A DNA stretch of 33,454 bases from Candidatus Levyibacteriota bacterium (GCA_003173995.1 PRDT01000015.1:1-33454), one strand, 5' to 3'; numbered from the stretch's first letter, positions 2,095 through 33,454 are shown. Made by a program: numbers and translations. Notes: a model not told the origin generated them from the sequence alone.

Positions 2095-3825
2095 ATGCTT
2101 TCTATTGAAAGTAAAGAATATCTATATTTTCCTAATACGAAAGGCAAAAGTTTGTCTTATACTGCATATATGTTGTTGGCTGTAAAAAAGCTGTTTGGGG
2201 GAAATCAGACGTTTATTTTTTTTGTTGCAATCACTATTCTTGCATTTATTTTACGGCTGTGGATGTTAGGATCCGTTCCATATGGACTATCTAATGATGA
2301 ATCAGGATACATCTATAGCTCTTATAGCATTTGGCATACAAGCCATGATGTCGCAGGGAAATTCTTACCTCTTTCAATAAATTTAGATAATTCATTTTCT
2401 CCAGTCTATATCTATACTGATGCACCTTTTGTAGGAATTCTGGGACTCTCTCCCTTTGCGGGAAGATTGCCGTATGCCTTGATAAGTGTGTTGTGTATTC
2501 CCCTTCTTTTCTTTTTGACAAGACTTCTTACGAAAAACAATGCCATTGCTCTTTTAGCTGCTTTTGGGCTTGCTGTATCACCTTGGCATCTGCAACTTTC
2601 AAGAGGTGCACTTGATGCTGATTTTGCGCTATTTTTCTATTTACTTGGCATCTATCTCTTTTGCCTTAAACCATCGAAATTAAAATATATCTTTTTTTCT
2701 CTTATTGCATTTTTGCTAGGATTTTACAGCTACCATGCAACAAAAATCTTTTTTATTTTCCTTCTTCCAATTCTATTTCTTTACTATCAACAGCTATTAA
2801 GAAAACACAAGATGGTAACAGCACTTTTCCTTGTAGGATGCGTTAGTATCTTTCTTTCATTTATATATATATCCAAAACTCAAAATGTTACTCGCCAACA
2901 AGTACTCCTCTTTAGTGATACACAGACTGCAGCAAAAGTAGTCAATGCAGAAAGAGCGTATAATAATGCACCTGCTCTTTTGAAAACAATCTTCAGCAAT
3001 AAATTACTGTTTCAACTACGAATAGTGAGAGAAAATTATTTACAAGCATTCTCTCCACAATATTTATTTTTATATGGCGAGCCAAGTAGTCTCAAACAAC
3101 AGTATAGCTTCTTTACAAGTGGAGAGCTCTATATTCTTGAATTACCATTTTTACTTATTGGTCTCTATGCACTCTTCCGATATAAATACAGTAAATTTCC
3201 ACTGCTGATGCTCCTCATTGCACCTCTTCCATCTGCTTTTTCTCTTGATCTTTCCTATATCAATAGAAGTATCATGATGCTTCCATTTTTAGAAATTATT
3301 GTTGGCATTGGACTTTACACAAGTTATCAATATTTTGAGAGAAGAAAAAAATATACCATTGCTTTTATCAGTATCATTACTATCATCTTCTTATTTCTTT
3401 TTTCAGAATACCTCTATACCTACTATTTTCGTTATCCAAATTTTGGAGCAGAAGGATGGAGAGCTAGTAGTAAAGATATTTCTCAATATGTAGGATTAAA
3501 TCATGCAAAATATAAAGATGTTTACATAGTAAATAATGAAAGGATGTTTTTACTGCAATATGGCATTTGGAATACAATCGCTCCAGGAGCTATGCAAACT
3601 TTATGGAAGAATTTTGACACAAATGCTTCTTTGGGAAATGTCCACTTTATTACTTCTTGTCCAAAAGATCTTCAATTTTATACAAAGCAAAATACACTTC
3701 TGGTTACAAAAAATCCTTGTGAGCCTGATATGAAACCCACAGAAAAAATAGTAGATAAAGCAGAGACTTTGCGTACTATCTGGTATATATACAGACTTCA
3801 AGAAGAACCGCAATTACTTCAGTAA
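2095..3825 (+). CDS. GT-C fold membrane glycosyltransferase (ArnT/PMT-like, GT39/GT83 type)
   Basis: Roughly a dozen hydrophobic helices span the first ~430 aa, followed by a soluble ~140-aa C-terminal domain. An acidic SNDESGY motif sits in the first extracytoplasmic loop, as in ArnT/PMT enzymes. An alternative ATG at 2170 would relieve the 14-bp divergent spacing to the kinase gene. Confidence 0.75.
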   Translation: MLSIESKEYLYFPNTKGKSLSYTAYMLLAVKKLFGGNQTFIFFVAITILAFILRLWMLGSVPYGLSNDESGYIYSSYSIWHTSHDVAGKFLPLSINLDNSFSPVYIYTDAPFVGILGLSPFAGRLPYALISVLCIPLLFFLTRLLTKNNAIALLAAFGLAVSPWHLQLSRGALDADFALFFYLLGIYLFCLKPSKLKYIFFSLIAFLLGFYSYHATKIFFIFLLPILFLYYQQLLRKHKMVTALFLVGCVSIFLSFIYISKTQNVTRQQVLLFSDTQTAAKVVNAERAYNNAPALLKTIFSNKLLFQLRIVRENYLQAFSPQYLFLYGEPSSLKQQYSFFTSGELYILELPFLLIGLYALFRYKYSKFPLLMLLIAPLPSAFSLDLSYINRSIMMLPFLEIIVGIGLYTSYQYFERRKKYTIAFISIITIIFLFLFSEYLYTYYFRYPNFGAEGWRASSKDISQYVGLNHAKYKDVYIVNNERMFLLQYGIWNTIAPGAMQTLWKNFDTNASLGNVHFITSCPKDLQFYTKQNTLLVTKNPCEPDMKPTEKIVDKAETLRTIWYIYRLQEEPQLLQ

Positions 3826-5007: not shown

Positions 5008-5916
5008 ATGATTCCTCAATTTCCCCAATTCAAACAATTAGAGCTCGAGGACAAAGAAGCTATTGAATCAATTACTTCGTCTTATCCTCCGTATTCTGAC
5101 TATAATTTTGTCAGTATATACAGCTATAATACTGATAATTCTGCTCAAATTAGCTTACTCAATGACAACCTTGTTGTAAAATTTCCTCATTATATTTCAA
5201 CACAAGCTTTTTATTCTTTTTTTGGAACAAATAATATTGTTGAGACAGCCACAACCCTTCTGCAATTTGCTAAAGAAAAAAAAGATGATACTACCCTTCA
5301 ACTTATCCCTGAAGTGAGCATCTTGGCAGATCCCCTCTTGCAAGAAAAATTTATTGTTGAGGAGGACATTGATAATTTTGATTATGTACTTTCTGTCCAG
5401 GGACTTTCTCATCTTGAGGGGAAAGAATATGCCGTAAAAAGAAATTTCGTCAATAGATTTATTAAAAAATACCCTCATCATGTCGCAAAAGAATTAGATG
5501 TAGCAGATACCGATATTCATAAAGAAATTCATGATTTGTTTCAACTCTGGGGACAGAATGGTAACAAAACAGAAGATGAATCAGCCAACGAGCTAAAAGC
5601 AATAACAAGACTTCTTGACGCTGCTTCTCATTTTCAATTATTTTCTCTAGGCATTTATGTAGATGAAAAACTCATTGCCTTTTCTATTAATGAACTCGTT
5701 CAAGAAAAGTATGCAGTTATCCATTTTGAAAAAGCTGATATTTCATATGAAGGTGTATTTCAATATATGAAACATATTACCGCAAAAATGTTAGGCGAGA
5801 AAGAATATGTTTTTATTAATTATGAGCAGGACTTAGGACTTGAGGGACTCAGAAAGGCAAAGCAATCATATCATCCCGTATCTTTTTTGAAAAAGTTTAT
5901 TATCAAAGAAAAATAA
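5008..5916 (+). CDS. DUF2156 protein (homologue of the MprF/LysX aminoacyl-phosphatidylglycerol synthase C-terminal domain), stand-alone and soluble
   Basis: The N-terminal pattern FKQLELEDKEAIESITSSYPPYSDYNFVSIYSYN, the ~300-aa length and the two GNAT-like halves are typical of DUF2156. No TM flippase domain is attached. Confidence 0.7.
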   Translation: MIPQFPQFKQLELEDKEAIESITSSYPPYSDYNFVSIYSYNTDNSAQISLLNDNLVVKFPHYISTQAFYSFFGTNNIVETATTLLQFAKEKKDDTTLQLIPEVSILADPLLQEKFIVEEDIDNFDYVLSVQGLSHLEGKEYAVKRNFVNRFIKKYPHHVAKELDVADTDIHKEIHDLFQLWGQNGNKTEDESANELKAITRLLDAASHFQLFSLGIYVDEKLIAFSINELVQEKYAVIHFEKADISYEGVFQYMKHITAKMLGEKEYVFINYEQDLGLEGLRKAKQSYHPVSFLKKFIIKEK

Positions 5917-15448: not shown

Positions 15449-17152
15449 ATGAGAGCCTTGCTGAAAAAGATTTCCCAACCATGTAACCAACTAACTGTTG
15501 GCGCACTTTTCTTTATTCTTTTCAGCTTTCTTGCCAATACCTTTCATGAGAAATACCCAGATGAATTCGATAATATTCTCGGAGGGTGGTTTGTTATTCA
15601 TGGTCATCCTCTCTATACAGGCTTTTTTACCCACCATGGACCGGTAGCGTATCTTCTTGCCGGAATAATTGAAATTTTTACTAGACGATCATTTGTTGCT
15701 TTTCGTATAGTCTATGCTCTTTTTCTTTTTGTTTTCTCTAGTGGCATCTATCTTTATTTTAAAAAAAGATTTGATGAAGTCAGTACTCGATTTTATCTTT
15801 TATTTCTTGTCTTCATTGGTCTTTCTACAACCTACTTCTGGGGTCATATGTTGCTCGCAGACTCACTTTCATCATTTTTGCTTACTCCAGTAGTGTTTCT
15901 CTTAACGCTTCTTACTCTAGAGAAGAAAAATCTTATGACAAAAGATATTTTCTTGATTTCTATCTTGACCAGCCTAGCTACTCTCGCTGCACTCACCTAC
16001 ATTTATTTTGCCGCAATTGTTTATTTGTATACTTTTTTTCTTATACTCAAAGAGAAAAAGGACGTATCTCACATAGCAAAGGCAATCGGACTTATGGCAA
16101 TTCCTTATGGTATCTTTCTTATCTATTTTCTCCTAACAGGCAGTCTTACTGCATACATTACTCAAGCGATTATTTTTAATGGCAAATATTATGCCTATAC
16201 CTATCCTGGTATTGGGCAAGGTCAATTTCTTAATCCATTCAAACAAATAGTTATTATTAGTCATGACTTCTTTATTAATTTTTACTTACTCCTTCGACAA
16301 GTAAAAGATTTGAATGTGAATTTTCCTTTTAATATCACTCTTGCAGTTGCTGATGTCGGATTTCTTATCTATCTTTGCCTAAGGAAAAAATTTAGTCTTG
16401 CACTATTTTTCTATTTACTTCTTACTTTTGCGAATGCGAGAAGTAATCCTCTTACATCAGGTGAAACAGACTACCAATCAGCAGTCTATATTACACTTTC
16501 TTTTGCTTCTTTAGCTTTTATTCTTTTTGCCTTCTGGGATTATCTTCAAGAGACACTAAGTCATCCAAAGCGTCTTATTGCCTCAGTAGTTTATATTATT
16601 GTCGCAATCTATGCATTCTTTGGTATTCTTTTTGTCGGACATAAATTCGTCAATCATGTGTATTTGAAATATATGCATCTTGAAGGAGGTATTAAAGATA
16701 CGCCACACATAGCACCAATTCTTAATTCACTCACAACAAAGAATGATTATATTTGGATAGGGCCATTCTCTTTTGAAGAGTTGTGGTATAGCAATGCAAA
16801 AGTTCCATCCAATTTTATTATTCTTTTACCAGAATTTCCTCATATTCCAGGAGTAACACAAAAAATGATGCAGGAATTTAATGAAAATAAACCGCTCGTT
16901 ATTTACTTCAATCAAGATCAAGGAGTACGAGGGTATGTACCATACAACTATGCACCATTTTTCATTGATTTTCTGAAGGAAAATTATGTGACGGTAGCCC
17001 AGTATAAAAAAGGCAAAACCACATATGAAAATACTATTCAGATTACAGGAGACTTGGATATCCAAAATAAGTTATTCTTACGAAAAGACCAAGCAGATGT
17101 ATTGATACAAAAGATGCTGCAATTAGGATATATTCATCAGAAAGAAAAATAA
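15449..17152 (+). CDS. Polytopic membrane protein, GT-C-like glycosyltransferase candidate
   Basis: About 12-13 TM helices in the first ~400 aa and a soluble ~170-aa C-terminal domain. An acidic YPDEFDNILGG motif follows TM1 directly, in the position of the GT-C DxD/ExD motif. No closer family recognised. Confidence 0.55.
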   Translation: MRALLKKISQPCNQLTVGALFFILFSFLANTFHEKYPDEFDNILGGWFVIHGHPLYTGFFTHHGPVAYLLAGIIEIFTRRSFVAFRIVYALFLFVFSSGIYLYFKKRFDEVSTRFYLLFLVFIGLSTTYFWGHMLLADSLSSFLLTPVVFLLTLLTLEKKNLMTKDIFLISILTSLATLAALTYIYFAAIVYLYTFFLILKEKKDVSHIAKAIGLMAIPYGIFLIYFLLTGSLTAYITQAIIFNGKYYAYTYPGIGQGQFLNPFKQIVIISHDFFINFYLLLRQVKDLNVNFPFNITLAVADVGFLIYLCLRKKFSLALFFYLLLTFANARSNPLTSGETDYQSAVYITLSFASLAFILFAFWDYLQETLSHPKRLIASVVYIIVAIYAFFGILFVGHKFVNHVYLKYMHLEGGIKDTPHIAPILNSLTTKNDYIWIGPFSFEELWYSNAKVPSNFIILLPEFPHIPGVTQKMMQEFNENKPLVIYFNQDQGVRGYVPYNYAPFFIDFLKENYVTVAQYKKGKTTYENTIQITGDLDIQNKLFLRKDQADVLIQKMLQLGYIHQKEK

Positions 17153-29233: not shown

Positions 29234-31090
29234 GTGAAGGTAATTTTTTACCGCCTATTAGTTAGTGATTTTATTGCCGTGATTAGATTTATTGGAACTG
29301 CCCAAAGAGGGAAACAATCTCTTTTATACTACAGCCAGAATGAAGGAGGATATGACTATCTCAAAGTTACTTCAAGTCATGATGGCTTTACTTTTTCTGA
29401 CAAATCCACCTATGTCTTTGTCTTTGATCTAGAACAAAAAGAGACACAAAATTATGATTGGAAAAGTGTCAGAATTACCAAGCAAGATTCACAATATCTC
29501 CTCACCTATAATACAGATGGCAAATTATCTGCTGCATTCTCATCTGATTTAGTCCGCTGGCAGCAAACAGGAGAAATTGAAGGTATTTCTGAGACAGCAA
29601 CCGTTGTCTCGGATTTCATGCATAACAATCAATATGTTATGTATTTTGGTGATAAAGATATTCGCATTGCCTATTCTTCAGACCTTCAGCATTGGACAGT
29701 TCAGGACGAAACATTACTCAGCCCTAGAGATGGATCTTTTGATAGTTCTAATTTAGAAGTTGGTAATGCATTTGAGCTGGAAGATGCAATTCTTGTCACC
29801 TATTATGTTAAAAAAGAAGTTAATGGACAGGACAGATATTTTGTAGGTGCTGCCTATTTTGACAAGACTAACCCATCAGTATGCCTCTGGCGATCTGAAT
29901 TGCCACTGTGGGAACAAGCCAATCAGCTCCAAGGAGAGAAGCTTATGCCACTTGGATCTGTCATCATGCATGATGAATTAGTCTTTTATTGGGTACTCAA
30001 TGAGAATACAATTTTTGCTGTATCTACTCAAATTCCAGAAATTCGAGATATCCCTGAAAGCAAGGCCTTTTCTGTCCTGGTGAAGAAGTTCCACAAGAAT
30101 CCTATTATTGCCCCTCGACCTGAAGTCCCATGGGAATCACGAGCAACATTTAATAGTGCAGCACTTTATGAAGACGGGAAAGTGCATTTTCTTTACCGTG
30201 CACTTGGCGATAAGGATTTATCAGTCCTTGGCTACGCAACAAGTAAAGATGGTCTAACAATTGATCACCGATCTGACATCCCAGCATATATTCCACGTGA
30301 ACCATTTGAGACTCCTGGTGGAAATGCCTTCAAAACATTCGCTGATCATTTTGCATCCGGAGGAGGGTATGGTGGAGTAGAGGATCCACGTATTACAAGA
30401 GTTGAAGACAGAGTCTATCTGACCTATGTTGCGTTTGACGGTGCTACACCACCTCGTGCTGCAATGTCTTCTATTCATATTGATGATTTCTTGGAAAATA
30501 ATTGGGAGAGATGGGATACTCCAAAATTAATTTCAGCACCTGGTATGGTAAATAAAAGCGCCGTTGTCTTACCACGAAAAGTAAATGGGAAATATGTAAT
30601 GCTTCACCGGGTTTATCCAAATATTTTAGTTGATTATCTTGATAACTTAGAATTTGATGAATATTTGCAAGGACACTATTTCATCCCACCACGAAAAAAT
30701 TTCTGGGATAGTAAGAAAGTAGGAGCTGGTGCTCCACCAATTGAGACAAAAGATGGATGGCTTCTTATTTATCAATCAGTTGGCTATCAAGATCCGTCTC
30801 GATATAAAATTGGTGCCATGATGCTTGATATCAACAATCCAGCAAAAGTATTGTATCGAACGCACATGCCAATTATTGAACCTGTTGAACCATACGAAAA
30901 TAATGGATTTAAATCAGGTGTTGTGTATCCTTGTGGTGCTGTTATTATGAAAGATAAGTTATACATTTACTATGGCGGCGCAGATTCGTATGTAAATGCA
31001 GCATCAGCAGATATAGATACTTTTTTGGATGAAATGAAGCACAATCAAGAACCAAAATTAACGACAGTAACCAGCGGATTATTTAATTAA
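29234..31090 (+). CDS. Two-domain GH130-type protein: degenerate beta-propeller N-domain plus GH130 (beta-mannoside phosphorylase/hydrolase family, DUF377) C-domain
   Basis: The C-domain (aa ~285-618) has NPIIAPRPEVPWESRATFNSAALYEDGKVHFLYRA, GVEDPRITRVEDRVYLTYVAFDG, and GAPPIETKDGWLLIYQSV...YKIGAMMLD...YYGGADS. The N-domain keeps blade-like S-x-D-x-x-x-W motifs (SSDLVRWQ, SSDLQHWT) but has no EDPR. The start is GTG, with no in-frame ATG for >120 codons. No signal peptide. Confidence 0.8.
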   Translation: MKVIFYRLLVSDFIAVIRFIGTAQRGKQSLLYYSQNEGGYDYLKVTSSHDGFTFSDKSTYVFVFDLEQKETQNYDWKSVRITKQDSQYLLTYNTDGKLSAAFSSDLVRWQQTGEIEGISETATVVSDFMHNNQYVMYFGDKDIRIAYSSDLQHWTVQDETLLSPRDGSFDSSNLEVGNAFELEDAILVTYYVKKEVNGQDRYFVGAAYFDKTNPSVCLWRSELPLWEQANQLQGEKLMPLGSVIMHDELVFYWVLNENTIFAVSTQIPEIRDIPESKAFSVLVKKFHKNPIIAPRPEVPWESRATFNSAALYEDGKVHFLYRALGDKDLSVLGYATSKDGLTIDHRSDIPAYIPREPFETPGGNAFKTFADHFASGGGYGGVEDPRITRVEDRVYLTYVAFDGATPPRAAMSSIHIDDFLENNWERWDTPKLISAPGMVNKSAVVLPRKVNGKYVMLHRVYPNILVDYLDNLEFDEYLQGHYFIPPRKNFWDSKKVGAGAPPIETKDGWLLIYQSVGYQDPSRYKIGAMMLDINNPAKVLYRTHMPIIEPVEPYENNGFKSGVVYPCGAVIMKDKLYIYYGGADSYVNAASADIDTFLDEMKHNQEPKLTTVTSGLFN

Positions 31091-31093
31091 ATT

Positions 31094-33025
31094 ATGGCAA
31101 CACTAACACGTATCCCCGATAATCCGATACTCATACCAAATCCTGAACAAGAATGGGAACATGATGGTGCATTTAATGGGTCTGTTGTCTTTGTGAACGG
31201 GGTTTACCACATGGTCTATCGCGCACTTTCCATGCCCCGCGAGCAAAATGGTGTCCACATGCAAGTTTCATCAGTTGGATACGCAACAAGTACAGATGGC
31301 GTACATTTTGGTGAGCACCGACAACTTATTGCTCCTTCTGAAGATTGGGAAATATATGGTTGCGAAGATCCACGTATCACCTATATGGATGGGAAATTCT
31401 ATATTTTCTATACTGCCCTTTCTGTCTATCCATTTGCAGCGTATGGTATAAAACTTGCTGTTGCTATCTCACATGATATGCAGACGTTTGAGAAGCATCC
31501 TGTAACAACATTTAATTCAAAAGCAATGGCACTTTTTCCAGAAAAAATTGGTGGCAAGTATGCTGCTCTTCTTACCATGAATACTGATATGCCACCTGCA
31601 AAAATTGCACTTGCAACATTTGACCGGGAAGAAGACATTTGGTCTCCTGCTTACTGGGCACAGTGGTATGAAAATGCCAACAACCATATTCTCCATTTAC
31701 TTCGCGATATGCGAGATCAAGTTGAATTAGGTGCGCCACCTATCAAGACCGAATTAGGGTGGGTCGTCGTCTATTCCTATATTAAAGACTATATGTCAAA
31801 TGATAAAAAATTTGGCATTGAGGCAGTACTGCTCGATTTAGAAAATCCTCTGAATGTTATTGGAAGGACACAACTTCCTATGCTTACCCCAGAAGAACCA
31901 TATGAAAAAGAGGGGATTGTCCCCAATGTCATTTTCCCATCAGGGGCACTAGTCCAAAATGATAGACTATTTGTTTATTACGGAGCAGCTGATACGCGAT
32001 GTGCTCTTGCAACAGTTCATCTGAATTCCCTTCTTGATCAGATAAAACCAGTTGGTGGGACCGTTGCAACACTCTCTACATCAGGTCCTCAAAAATTTGC
32101 TCGATTTGAAGGCAATCCTATTATTACTCCAGCACTTGAGCTGGACTGGCAAGTCACTACCTTTAATCCTGCAGCAATTTATGAAGGAGGAAAAGTCCAT
32201 ATTCTCTACAGATCACAAACGCATGATGGGACATCTGTCATAGGGTATGCATCCAGTAAAGATGGCCTCCATATTGATGAGAATTTAGACGCTCCCATTT
32301 ATACTCCGAGAGAAAATTTTGAAAAAAAATCTCATCCTCAAGGTAATTCAGGATGCGAAGATCCACGAATTACAAAAATTGGTGACCGGCTTTATATGAC
32401 CTACACCGCCTATGATGGAGCCAATCCGCCGAGAGTTGCACTCACATCAATTGCCATAGCAGATTTTTTGCAAAAAAATTGGGATTGGGAGAAGCCCAAA
32501 CTTATTTCTCCTCCTGGAGTTGATGATAAAGATGCATGTATTGTTAAAAAAGTACGAGGGGAAGGATATGTTGCATTTCATCGACTTGGAGATGCAATGT
32601 GGCTAGATTTCTTAAGAGATTTGGATTTTCCAGAGAAAAAATACCTCACAGGTGGTATTGTTGCACAAGCCAGACCTGATAAATGGGATAATGTAAAAAT
32701 TGGCATTGGGGCACCACCTATTGAAACAGATTATGGATGGCTTCTTTTATATCATGGTGTTTCTCAACCTGGTTTTGTGTATAAAGTTGGCGCAATGCTT
32801 TTGGATTATGATGACCCTCGCAATATTCTTGCCCGAACTGATGAACCAATTTTTGAACCTGAAAAATCATATGAATTAAAGGGCCAAGTACCAAATGTTG
32901 TCTTTCCATGTGGAGCAGTTGTCATGGAAAATGTTATCTATATGTATTATGGCGGAGCAGATTCGGTTGTGGGTGTTGCAACAATGCCACTGCAAACATT
33001 ACTTGATATTCTCCTTGGGAAATAA
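31094..33025 (+). CDS. Tandem GH130-GH130 protein (two complete GH130 beta-propeller domains)
   Basis: Domain 1 (aa 1-~318) has DNPILIPNPEQEWEHDGAFNGSVVF, GCEDPRITYMDGKFYIFYTA, and GAPPIKTELGWVVVYS...YYGAADT. Domain 2 (aa ~335-643) has GNPIITPALELDWQVTTFNPAAIYE, GCEDPRITKIGDRLYMTYTAYDG, and GAPPIETDYGWLLLYHGV...YYGGADS. No signal peptide. Confidence 0.85.
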   Translation: MATLTRIPDNPILIPNPEQEWEHDGAFNGSVVFVNGVYHMVYRALSMPREQNGVHMQVSSVGYATSTDGVHFGEHRQLIAPSEDWEIYGCEDPRITYMDGKFYIFYTALSVYPFAAYGIKLAVAISHDMQTFEKHPVTTFNSKAMALFPEKIGGKYAALLTMNTDMPPAKIALATFDREEDIWSPAYWAQWYENANNHILHLLRDMRDQVELGAPPIKTELGWVVVYSYIKDYMSNDKKFGIEAVLLDLENPLNVIGRTQLPMLTPEEPYEKEGIVPNVIFPSGALVQNDRLFVYYGAADTRCALATVHLNSLLDQIKPVGGTVATLSTSGPQKFARFEGNPIITPALELDWQVTTFNPAAIYEGGKVHILYRSQTHDGTSVIGYASSKDGLHIDENLDAPIYTPRENFEKKSHPQGNSGCEDPRITKIGDRLYMTYTAYDGANPPRVALTSIAIADFLQKNWDWEKPKLISPPGVDDKDACIVKKVRGEGYVAFHRLGDAMWLDFLRDLDFPEKKYLTGGIVAQARPDKWDNVKIGIGAPPIETDYGWLLLYHGVSQPGFVYKVGAMLLDYDDPRNILARTDEPIFEPEKSYELKGQVPNVVFPCGAVVMENVIYMYYGGADSVVGVATMPLQTLLDILLGK

Positions 33026-33039
33026 TACGGTTATACTAT

Positions 33040-33454
33040 ATGGATAAAAAGCCGTTAGTATTCACGCAGAAAGTTATGAGATATTTTTCATTTGTTGTTA
33101 TTCTCTTGTTTCTTTTTCTCAGCCAGTCAAGACCTCTTTTTGCCCAAGCTGCAAATACCAATACTTCTAATGTACAAGGAGCAGCCACTATGGGCGTTGC
33201 GACAATGGTCGAAGTTGATAGTAAGGATGTTAAAGATGGCAATGTCCTCTCTTCATCCAAAAAAGGAGCTATTCTTTCTACTACTCCTTATGATTCACAA
33301 GTATTAGGTATTGTCTCAAGAGATGCTGCTATTGTCTTTAGTACGCAAGCAAGTGAAAATGCAGTACCAGTTATTTCTGAGGGTATTGTCTATGTACTGG
33401 TCTCAAGCCAACAAGGAGCCATAAAAAAAGATGATCTTCTCGCTACTTCTACTA
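33040..33454 (+). CDS. Secreted hypothetical protein, N-terminal fragment (runs off the window)
   Basis: It is absent from the ORF track because no stop codon is reached. ATG 33040 (or ATG 33076) opens a frame that stays open to the window end. The signal-peptide-like segment is MRYFSFVVILLFLFLSQSRPLFAQA, followed by ...VEVDSKDVKDGNVLSSSKKGAILSTTPYDSQVLGIVSRD... Confidence 0.55.
   Translation, partial: MDKKPLVFTQKVMRYFSFVVILLFLFLSQSRPLFAQAANTNTSNVQGAATMGVATMVEVDSKDVKDGNVLSSSKKGAILSTTPYDSQVLGIVSRDAAIVFSTQASENAVPVISEGIVYVLVSSQQGAIKKDDLLATST

Follow-up and report, generated by a model that had tools for sequence, protein, structure and literature searches.

We analysed a pair of adjacent genes in a 33,454-nucleotide (nt) stretch of DNA from Candidatus Levyibacteriota bacterium (GCA_003173995.1, PRDT01000015.1:1-33454), referred to here as the window. 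Genes 1 and 2 are co-directional, with only a TAA stop and 3 nt between them, and each encodes two domains of glycoside hydrolase family GH130 in tandem, which we name g1N, g1C, g2N and g2C after their gene and their N- or C-terminal position. The pair belongs to a widespread, uncharacterised two-gene, four-domain GH130 set, although the GH130-GH130 architecture itself is already listed in CAZy. The features are as follows (aa, amino acids).

Gene 1 (partner gene), longest open reading frame (ORF): 29234..31090, + strand; 618 aa, GTG start
Gene 1, probable true extent: 29279..31090, + strand; 603 aa, GTG start; degenerate GH130-like N-domain and phosphorylase-like C-domain, PF04041 twice
g1N: 29279..30037, + strand; GH130-like domain, predicted to be catalytically dead; PF04041 41.6 bits
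g1C: 30077..31048, + strand; GH130 domain of phosphorylase type with the His ligand changed to Gln; PF04041 161.2 bits
Gene 2: 31094..33025, + strand; 643 aa, ATG start; GH130 domain lacking the phosphate site, followed by a canonical phosphorylase GH130 domain
g2N: 31094..32050, + strand; GH130 domain without phosphate ligands, putative hydrolase-type active site; PF04041 162.0 bits
Gene 2 inter-domain linker: 32051..32089, + strand; predicted to be disordered, AlphaFold2 (AF2) predicted local distance difference test (pLDDT) <50 at residues 319-331
g2C: 32090..33016, + strand; canonical beta-1,2-mannoside phosphorylase-type domain; PF04041 206.4 bits

Family membership and gene boundaries

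When Pfam was scanned half by half, all four halves exceeded the gathering score of PF04041 (Glyco_hydro_130; 26 bits), including g1N (E 9.8e-11), whose match covers profile positions 55-264 only. No PF04041 matches other than these four domains occur in the genome, whose assembly spans 964 kb and is 62% complete. Membership of a different propeller family (GH43 or GH32) was considered and rejected: GH43 was below its cut-off in every half and GH32N rose marginally above its own on g2N (25.2-25.3 versus 22.1 bits), with all such scores far under those for GH130. The original prediction, made by a model from the sequence alone, had placed four GH130-like domains in two adjacent two-domain genes at these positions, and the motifs that it quoted (NPII/L, EDPRIT, GAPPIxTxxGW, YYG(G/A)AD, and GAGAPPIETKDGWLLIYQSV versus GIGAPPIETDYGWLLLYHGV for the two C-domains) are all present as written. 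By inspection there is no signal peptide at either N-terminus, which also agrees with that description. Close orthologues of gene 1 begin MIKF(I/V)G in five of six cases, and others begin MI(K/R/T/N)xxG. Because these starts correspond to the in-frame GTG at 29279 (M-IRFIGTAQ), gene 1 probably begins there and the 15 extra codons from 29234 are probably not translated.

The top-ranked NCBIfam model for both genes is that for beta-1,2-mannobiose phosphorylase (NF052550), whose equivalog cut-off of 450 bits is reached neither by gene 2 (443.1 bits, two domains summed) nor by gene 1 (282.8 bits); on these scores both are relatives, not equivalogs, of that enzyme. The nearest solved structures by sequence are 7FIP and 9FJ8 from Thermoanaerobacter (E 1e-45 to 1e-55; for g2C 6.6e-55 and 2.3e-54, respectively). 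Foldseek searches with AF2 whole-gene models (mean pLDDT 88.5 for gene 1 and 91.7 for gene 2) gave GH130 structures, and with them the five-bladed beta-propeller fold, for all of the top 30-35 matches (TM-score, TMt, up to 0.90), with Teth514_1788/1789 on top for gene 2 (TMt 0.87-0.90). The predicted TM-score (pTM) is 0.54 for gene 2 and, together with the disordered linker, gives no support to the idea that this protein is a rigid intramolecular pseudo-dimer; for gene 1, with a pTM of 0.70, the predicted domain arrangement is ambiguous.

Active-site signatures of the four domains

The determinants of GH130 activity are a proton donor (D104 in Uhgb_MP), an Asn and an Asp in the -1 subsite, a linkage pair in the +1 subsite and three basic phosphate ligands (PMC7660257, PMC4599007, PMC12814180), and a Glu/Lys pair at the +1 subsite predicts beta-1,2 linkage (PMC7660257, PMC4599007). 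Three phosphate ligands were scored here: Arg in the motif 'HR', Lys or Arg in '(K/R)(V/I)G' and His in 'YH'. Species-representative genomes were scanned with patterns specific for the g2N domain, and locus-wise residue signatures were taken from the best 80 of at least 584 loci. The proton-donor Asp is found in g1C (D384), g2N (D92) and g2C (D423), with Ser in its place in g1N; the Glu/Lys pair is likewise present in the first three, where it is invariant across homologues, and reads K/T in g1N. All three basic phosphate ligands are present in g2C only (R497, K535 and H554). Its other determinants are N358, R373, E422, K479 and D623, and the resulting signature NREDK-HR-(K/R)-H-D occurs at 80/80 loci and in 120-121 of 121 close homologues. 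The g1C domain keeps the E383/K441 pair and the ligands R459 and K495 but has Q514 (nt 30773-30775) for the His, giving NREDK-HR-K-Q-D. This Gln is invariant in six close orthologues and predominates (IYQSVG consensus) in a 21-sequence alignment; in more distant lineages among the 80 loci, HR-K-H, HR-K-Y or HS-(hydrophobic)-H is found in the partner domain. Directly before EDPR, g1C contains a loop insert of 23 aa, ETPGGNAFKTFADHFASGGGYGG (nt 30308-30376). The original prediction of three domains that keep the family signatures beside one dead domain is therefore upheld for the donor and subsites of all three, but not for the phosphate site. Since g2N has lost the three basic ligands and g1C has Gln for His, the "three good, one dead" description is too coarse, and to judge from these residues only g2C is a canonical phosphorylase.

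The -1 and +1 subsites of g2N are intact (N28, R43, E91, D92, K143 and D300), and the proton donor, both subsites and the Glu/Lys pair are invariant in all homologues. The phosphate-ligand positions are instead occupied by T161 (for Arg), Q209 (for Lys/Arg) and S228 (for His); the Thr is found in 119 of 121 homologues and the Ser in 112, with (T/S/A), (Q/H) and (S/C/A/G) as the class-wide pattern. Where phosphorylases have 'HR', the g2N class has (L/I/V/F)(T/S/A) and then an inserted loop, x-(T/S/P)-D-x-x-P-P, and their (K/R)(V/I)G becomes (Q/H)(V/I)E(V/L)G. Two acids are invariant in g2N, namely D165 (nt 31586-31588) in the inserted T-D-x-P-P loop and E211 (nt 31724-31726) in the QVELG motif, and the pair recurs at 80/80 loci and in alignments spanning 43-77% identity. 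A helical insert is also present in g2N at residues 181-198 (nt 31634-31687), and the AF2 model of gene 2 shows it at residues 179-198.

In the GH130 hydrolases, two Glu residues (E227 and E268 in BT3780) replace basic phosphate ligands (PMC4599007). In MAFFT L-INS-i, MAFFT E-INS-i and hmmalign alignments alike, E211 of g2N shares a column with E246 of 3TAW, which belongs to the Bacteroidales hydrolase group; this column is Gly in all phosphorylases, and the spacing of E205 and E246 in 3TAW (41 residues) is the same as that of E227 and E268 in BT3780. From strand geometry we infer that E211, two positions on from Q209 (i+2), should point to the side on which the lost basic ligand lay. It is because the basic ligands are lost, while a Glu at the hydrolase-base position and a nearby Asp are invariant, that we propose hydrolysis for g2N, an assignment that we hold tentatively and put at slightly below even chances. 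Sequence comparison places g2N far closer to phosphorylases (9FJ8, E 3.4e-50) than to known hydrolases (5A7V, E 2.6e-18; with the BetMansidBT3780 hidden Markov model (HMM), NF058598, gene 2 as a whole reaches 221.7 bits against a cut-off of 550), so that if g2N is a hydrolase it would have evolved independently of GH130_3. A GH130 enzyme unable to accommodate phosphate and lying outside the GH130_3 type "has never been described" (Ladeveze 2025, PMC12814180), and the g2N class is, on its residue pattern, a candidate for such a type.

It could instead be argued that g2N is not an enzyme at all, but a lectin-like or regulatory domain that binds mannosides, keeping hold of the chain or sensing substrate on behalf of the attached phosphorylase and leaving the module with phosphorylase chemistry only. 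All phosphate ligands are gone, the first hydrolase base is not matched column for column, the neighbouring g1N shows that GH130 domains of this module can turn non-catalytic, and binding modules are typically found fused to an active domain. We nevertheless regard this as unlikely. The proton donor and all -1/+1 residues are invariant at 80/80 loci across phyla, as are the class-specific acids, one of which lies in the hydrolase-base column. Conservation among homologues is on a par with that of g2C (72% versus 76%), and g2N-class domains also occur as stand-alone proteins of ~325 aa, which is hardly to be expected of a mere accessory domain. Still more doubtful is the notion of g2N (or, in the HS-x-H lineages, g1C) as a dedicated GDP-mannose (GDP-Man) glycosyltransferase, by analogy with strict transferases of GT108 that lack the phosphate Arg; to this we attach very little weight. 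The beta-1,2 GH130 fold can accommodate GDP-Man (PMC12814180), and the strict transferases MTP1 and MTP2 of GT108 have His for the phosphate Arg (PMC10913872). The same comparison disfavours the idea, however, as the strict transferases keep most phosphate ligands whereas g2N has lost all the basic ones and gained acids, which argues against a phosphate- or GDP-mannose-dependent reaction in this domain.

The first domain of gene 1 was originally described as apparently catalytically dead, and its residues bear this out. The N-terminal NPI entry strand is missing from g1N, and K-S stands in place of the E-D of EDPR. At the positions of the -1 Asn, R59, E103, D104 and K150 it has a gap, Y, K, S and T, the D104 position being variable among orthologues; the signature reads -YKSTF-YE, with no basic phosphate ligand. 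The domain diverges much more than g1C among orthologues, yet it keeps many invariant structural positions and is predicted by AF2 to be compact and all-beta (pLDDT ~90). Because of these invariant positions and the confidently predicted compact fold, g1N is in our assessment a retained structural module. A word-based search with g1N on its own returned three relatives only, which speaks for fast divergence of the domain and not for rarity of the gene; in many lineages among the 80 loci, the partner gene has a short N-terminal extension in place of g1N. The motifs YFGDKD and NLEVG of g1N resemble 3TAW and gave rise to the idea that the domain is a relic of a g2N-type domain, left by duplication of the whole gene. 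The idea found no support, as class-specific HMMs favour the phosphorylase-type class (39.5 versus 23.0 bits; 18 of 21 sequences).

Distribution, phylogeny and genomic context

Among the matches listed for gene 2 there are 120 clusters at 68-78% identity, nearly all of 631-656 aa (one of 586 aa) and many labelled Patescibacteria or Levyibacteriota. An exhaustive search of 50%-identity representatives returned 559 proteins at E<=1e-30, among them ~12 full-length gene 2-type clusters and many proteins of ~600-650 aa that align via the C-domain only, which is the gene 1 pattern. The loci in species-representative genomes (at least 584) lie mainly in Patescibacteria, and most carriers have small genomes; their labels include many Patescibacteria, Dehalococcoidia/Chloroflexi, Omnitrophota, Babeliales and one Woesearchaeota archaeon, and one carrier, Arthrospiribacter ruber DPMB0001, is cultured. 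On three contigs that were examined, a gene for 606-613 aa directly precedes one for 643-654 aa in differing surroundings, and, among the best 80 loci, a second GH130 gene lies directly upstream on the same strand at 73 of the 75 for which upstream sequence is available. Recurrence of the architecture in hundreds of independent assemblies shows that the fusion is not an assembly artefact, a possibility that the original prediction had raised, and loci and phylogeny together show the two-domain pair to be conserved. In one genome (G018, contig C3; L014 2136-5981, - strand) a single 1281-aa ORF holds all four domains, in the order degenerate, HR-K-H, phosphate-less and HR-K-H, a Rosetta-stone fusion which argues that the proteins of genes 1 and 2 work together.

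In a tree of 110 domains, the g2N class forms one clade (Shimodaira-Hasegawa-like approximate likelihood ratio test 94; inner nodes 96 and 98) and the partner-domain (g1C) class forms another (support 100). The g2C-type domains and stand-alone canonical domains make up a grade around the partner clade, and the Teth514 pair falls outside all three classes. The C-domains of the two genes had been read as paralogues, and this agrees both with their 49% identity and with the origin of the g1C clade inside the g2C grade. The same species groupings recur in each class, and the domains have therefore been inherited, or transferred, together; on this tree, three of the four domains are shown to belong to three old paralogous classes inherited together.

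Several variants of the arrangement were also encountered. One protein of 645 aa (P0130) has the reversed order, the phosphate-less domain following the canonical one; another (P0126, 971 aa) contains three GH130 domains, and P0128 (1029 aa) and a 1142-aa ORF (L072 2860-6285) have ~400-460 extra C-terminal residues. In a Doudnabacteria locus (L039 2096-2983) a third small GH130 ORF of 296 aa lies between the genes, with the signature NREDK-VG-L-N-D and a very long branch. The three domains of the Woesearchaeota-labelled metagenome-assembled genome (L089) group with Paceibacterota/Jorgensenbacteria homologues, which implies that the module was transferred between domains of life in its entirety or that the contig was wrongly binned. 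Many third-party assembly (TPA) records titled 'uncultured Gammaproteobacteria bacterium' (L017-L020, L023, L024, L028 and others) carry a Patescibacteria-type module at 63-77% identity to the window, and their organism labels look unreliable.

The neighbours of the pair in the window (DUF1697, DUF1003, a two-component system and a MacB-type exporter) are unrelated to it. The families that recur most among the 129 flanking ORFs of the 80 loci are mannose-6-phosphate isomerase (MPI; eight times), MarR (five times) and phosphomannomutase (PMM; three times). A mannose-1-phosphate (Man-1-P) guanylyltransferase is encoded elsewhere in the same genome (contig C72:23727-24581, - strand; 362 aa; TIGR01479 E 2.5e-65); it comprises the guanylyltransferase part only, without an isomerase domain. 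Nucleotidyltransferases resembling RmlA, GalU and archaeal GlmU are encoded in this genome as well. No phosphohexomutase (PF02878) was matched in this 62%-complete genome, a gap that most likely reflects incompleteness because 115 of the 121 genomes of the order have one; the idea that GH130 might be the sole source of Man-1-P for want of PMM was dropped for the same reason.

The original prediction had also drawn attention to two GT-C (mannosyltransferase-like) enzymes in the window. One GT-C-like membrane protein (2095-3825) scores just above the cut-off for PMT, the Dol-P-Man protein mannosyltransferase family (26.2 bits), and a second (15449-17152) has no Pfam match at E<=1e-4. A functional link to the GH130 pair is not supported: the PMT-like gene is ~25 kb away, the flanks of the pair are not conserved and no synteny between pair and GT-C genes is conserved in other genomes. 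An ORF that begins 14 nt downstream of gene 2 and runs off the end of the window (33040-33453) has an N-terminal signal or anchor and a weak, below-cut-off match to an XM1_gp53 minor-capsid-like family (20.1 bits); a homologue of 266-271 aa follows the pair in L005 and L009, ahead of F-type ATP synthase genes. Elsewhere in the window, a 302-aa ORF (5008-5916) matches LPG_synthase_C, the phosphatidylglycerol lysyltransferase C-terminal domain (E 1.2e-28), without the membrane flippase part.

Proposed function and comparison with known systems

The signatures described above suggest a model in which genes 1 and 2 are co-transcribed and constitute a conserved cytoplasmic GH130 module for the degradation of beta-1,2-linked mannosides, and a catabolic role of this kind seems to us reasonably probable. 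In this scheme, g2C would act as a standard beta-1,2-mannoside phosphorylase, converting a mannoside and inorganic phosphate to alpha-mannose-1-phosphate and a shortened chain. The g1C domain would supply a second phosphorylase-type site, probably with another chain length, acceptor or donor preference because of its His-to-Gln ligand and the extra loop near the plus subsites, as is the case for the Teth514_1788/1789 pair. The g2N domain would bind no phosphate and would most plausibly hydrolyse a beta-1,2-mannosidic bond beyond the reach of the phosphorylases, and g1N would serve as a non-catalytic, well-folded scaffold or partner domain. The mannose-1-phosphate produced could enter GDP-mannose synthesis, or glycolysis via PMM and MPI. 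The recurrence of MPI and PMM among the neighbours and the presence of the guanylyltransferase fit such a cytoplasmic route from beta-mannoside to Man-1-P, as proposed for Thermoanaerobacter.

Several observations weigh against this interpretation. Every function rests on sequence signatures, and AF2 defines no arrangement of the two gene 2 domains. In g2N the column equivalent to BT3780 E227 holds N163 and neither Glu nor Asp, with D165 two residues later in the inserted loop; the domain lies outside the known hydrolase clade, whose members are mostly secreted, and a hydrolase would waste the energy that a phosphorylase conserves. The phosphate site of g1C differs by lineage (HR-K-Q, HR-K-H or HS-x-H), leaving its activity uncertain. 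There is no recurrent transporter among the 129 flanking ORFs of the 80 loci, and the carrier organisms are not known to have a natural source of beta-1,2-mannosides. Finally, the module is absent from 66 of the 121 genomes of the window's order (it is present in 55, and in 32 of 59 genera), and absent also from the one same-genus genome sampled, which is 97% complete.

Some of the same observations could be accommodated by an anabolic or cyclic module that builds and recycles an intracellular beta-1,2-mannan reserve like the mannogen of Leishmania, with one or more domains acting as GDP-mannose- or Man-1-P-dependent synthases and the others in degradation. All tested GH130 beta-1,2 phosphorylases are weak GDP-Man transferases and run reverse phosphorolysis (PMC12814180), and the mannogen enzymes of GT108 share the fold and came from bacteria (PMC10913872). 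The want of a linked transporter and of signal peptides, the constant association of three differentiated active sites and the GDP-Man pathway enzyme in the genome would all be in keeping with a reserve. We think this improbable, however, since there is no evidence of such a polymer in any carrier organism, the glycosyltransferase side activity is possibly irrelevant physiologically according to Ladeveze et al. (PMC12814180), and the recurrent neighbours are catabolic. The patchy distribution, including the same-genus absence, suits accessory scavenging better than a core reserve, and the MTP4 structure is only a distant match. An extended version of our proposal would have g2N as an independent cytoplasmic hydrolase arisen from beta-1,2-phosphorylase-like lineages, with the two phosphorylase/transferase-type domains running a mannogen-like beta-1,2-mannan reserve or a scavenging cycle characteristic of ultra-small host-dependent prokaryotes (the Candidate Phyla Radiation, DPANN, Dependentiae and Omnitrophota). 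As a whole, this is a speculation to which we give low odds.

GH130 is a model family for the interconversion of phosphorylase, hydrolase and transferase activities on one fold, and the canonical, altered, phosphate-less acid-bearing and dead sites of a single operon would offer a natural series for identifying mechanism-switching residues. Were g2N to prove a hydrolase as proposed, it would represent a second independent origin of GH130 hydrolysis, and its natural fusion to a phosphorylase would be the first of its kind in the family. Very few glycoside-active systems are present in the reduced genomes of Patescibacteria and comparable organisms; the module is one of them, and its substrate would therefore tell what the carriers eat or store, a question that the cultured Arthrospiribacter ruber DPMB0001 makes experimentally tractable.

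Our literature search found no paper analysing these two-domain GH130 proteins; in a paper on a Microgenomates genome, "two enzymes of family GH130" lacking signal peptides are mentioned. Characterised GH130 enzymes are, as originally stated, single-module (>99% of GH130 sequences are monomodular; Li 2020, PMC7660257). The two-domain architecture is not without precedent: GH130-GH130 proteins accounted for four of 1592 CAZy sequences in 2018, none of them characterised (PMC7660257). In those four, both modules of a protein fall in the same meta-node (PMC7660257), whereas the modules described here belong to different clades and carry different active-site signatures.

The mannoside phosphorylase kinship suggested at the outset is borne out, in that the characterised enzymes nearest to the pair are phosphorylases of beta-1,2-mannosides, which show weak GDP-Man transferase activity as well (PMC12814180). 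These are Teth514_1788 (1,2-beta-oligomannan phosphorylase, 9FJ8) and Teth514_1789 (beta-1,2-mannobiose phosphorylase, 7FIP) of Thermoanaerobacter sp. X-514, members of GH130_6 and the best matches for g1C, g2N and g2C (E 1e-45 to 1e-55, TMt 0.85-0.90). They have in common with these domains the Glu/Lys beta-1,2 pair, the proton donor and the -1 subsite, and g2C has the same three basic ligands. The two systems are alike in comprising two adjacent cytoplasmic GH130 genes with divided labour. The Teth514 enzymes are, however, single-domain homodimers of ~300 aa, whereas here there are two domains per gene and one of the four is fully canonical; their cluster includes an ABC transporter, a GH5 enzyme and a Man-1-P guanylyltransferase, and here no transporter is linked.

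The beta-1,2-mannosidases of GH130_3, BT3780 (5A7V) and BACOVA_03624 (3QC2), and relatives such as BDI_3141 (3TAW) resemble g2N in lacking the basic phosphate ligands and share with it the Asp donor, the +1 pair of Lys and Glu and, in the strand that precedes G-(A)-P-P, a Glu. Unlike them, g2N lacks both a Glu at the E227 column and a signal peptide, and it is joined to a phosphorylase; all three characterised GH130 mannosidases lie in meta-node C3 (Li 2020, PMC7660257). Lastly, the GT108 enzymes of Leishmania (MTP1-7) offer a parallel as GH130-related five-bladed propellers with beta-1,2-mannan chemistry, arranged in paralogue arrays in which some copies lack phosphorylase activity. The structural match is distant, 6Q50 (MTP4) ranking 36th for gene 2 (E 9.3e-10, 12% identity, TMt 0.64) and not appearing in the top 50 Foldseek matches listed for gene 1. 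GT108 enzymes are single-domain, and their functional switch consists of an Arg-to-His change with distal mutations, in contrast to the loss of all basic ligands seen in g2N.

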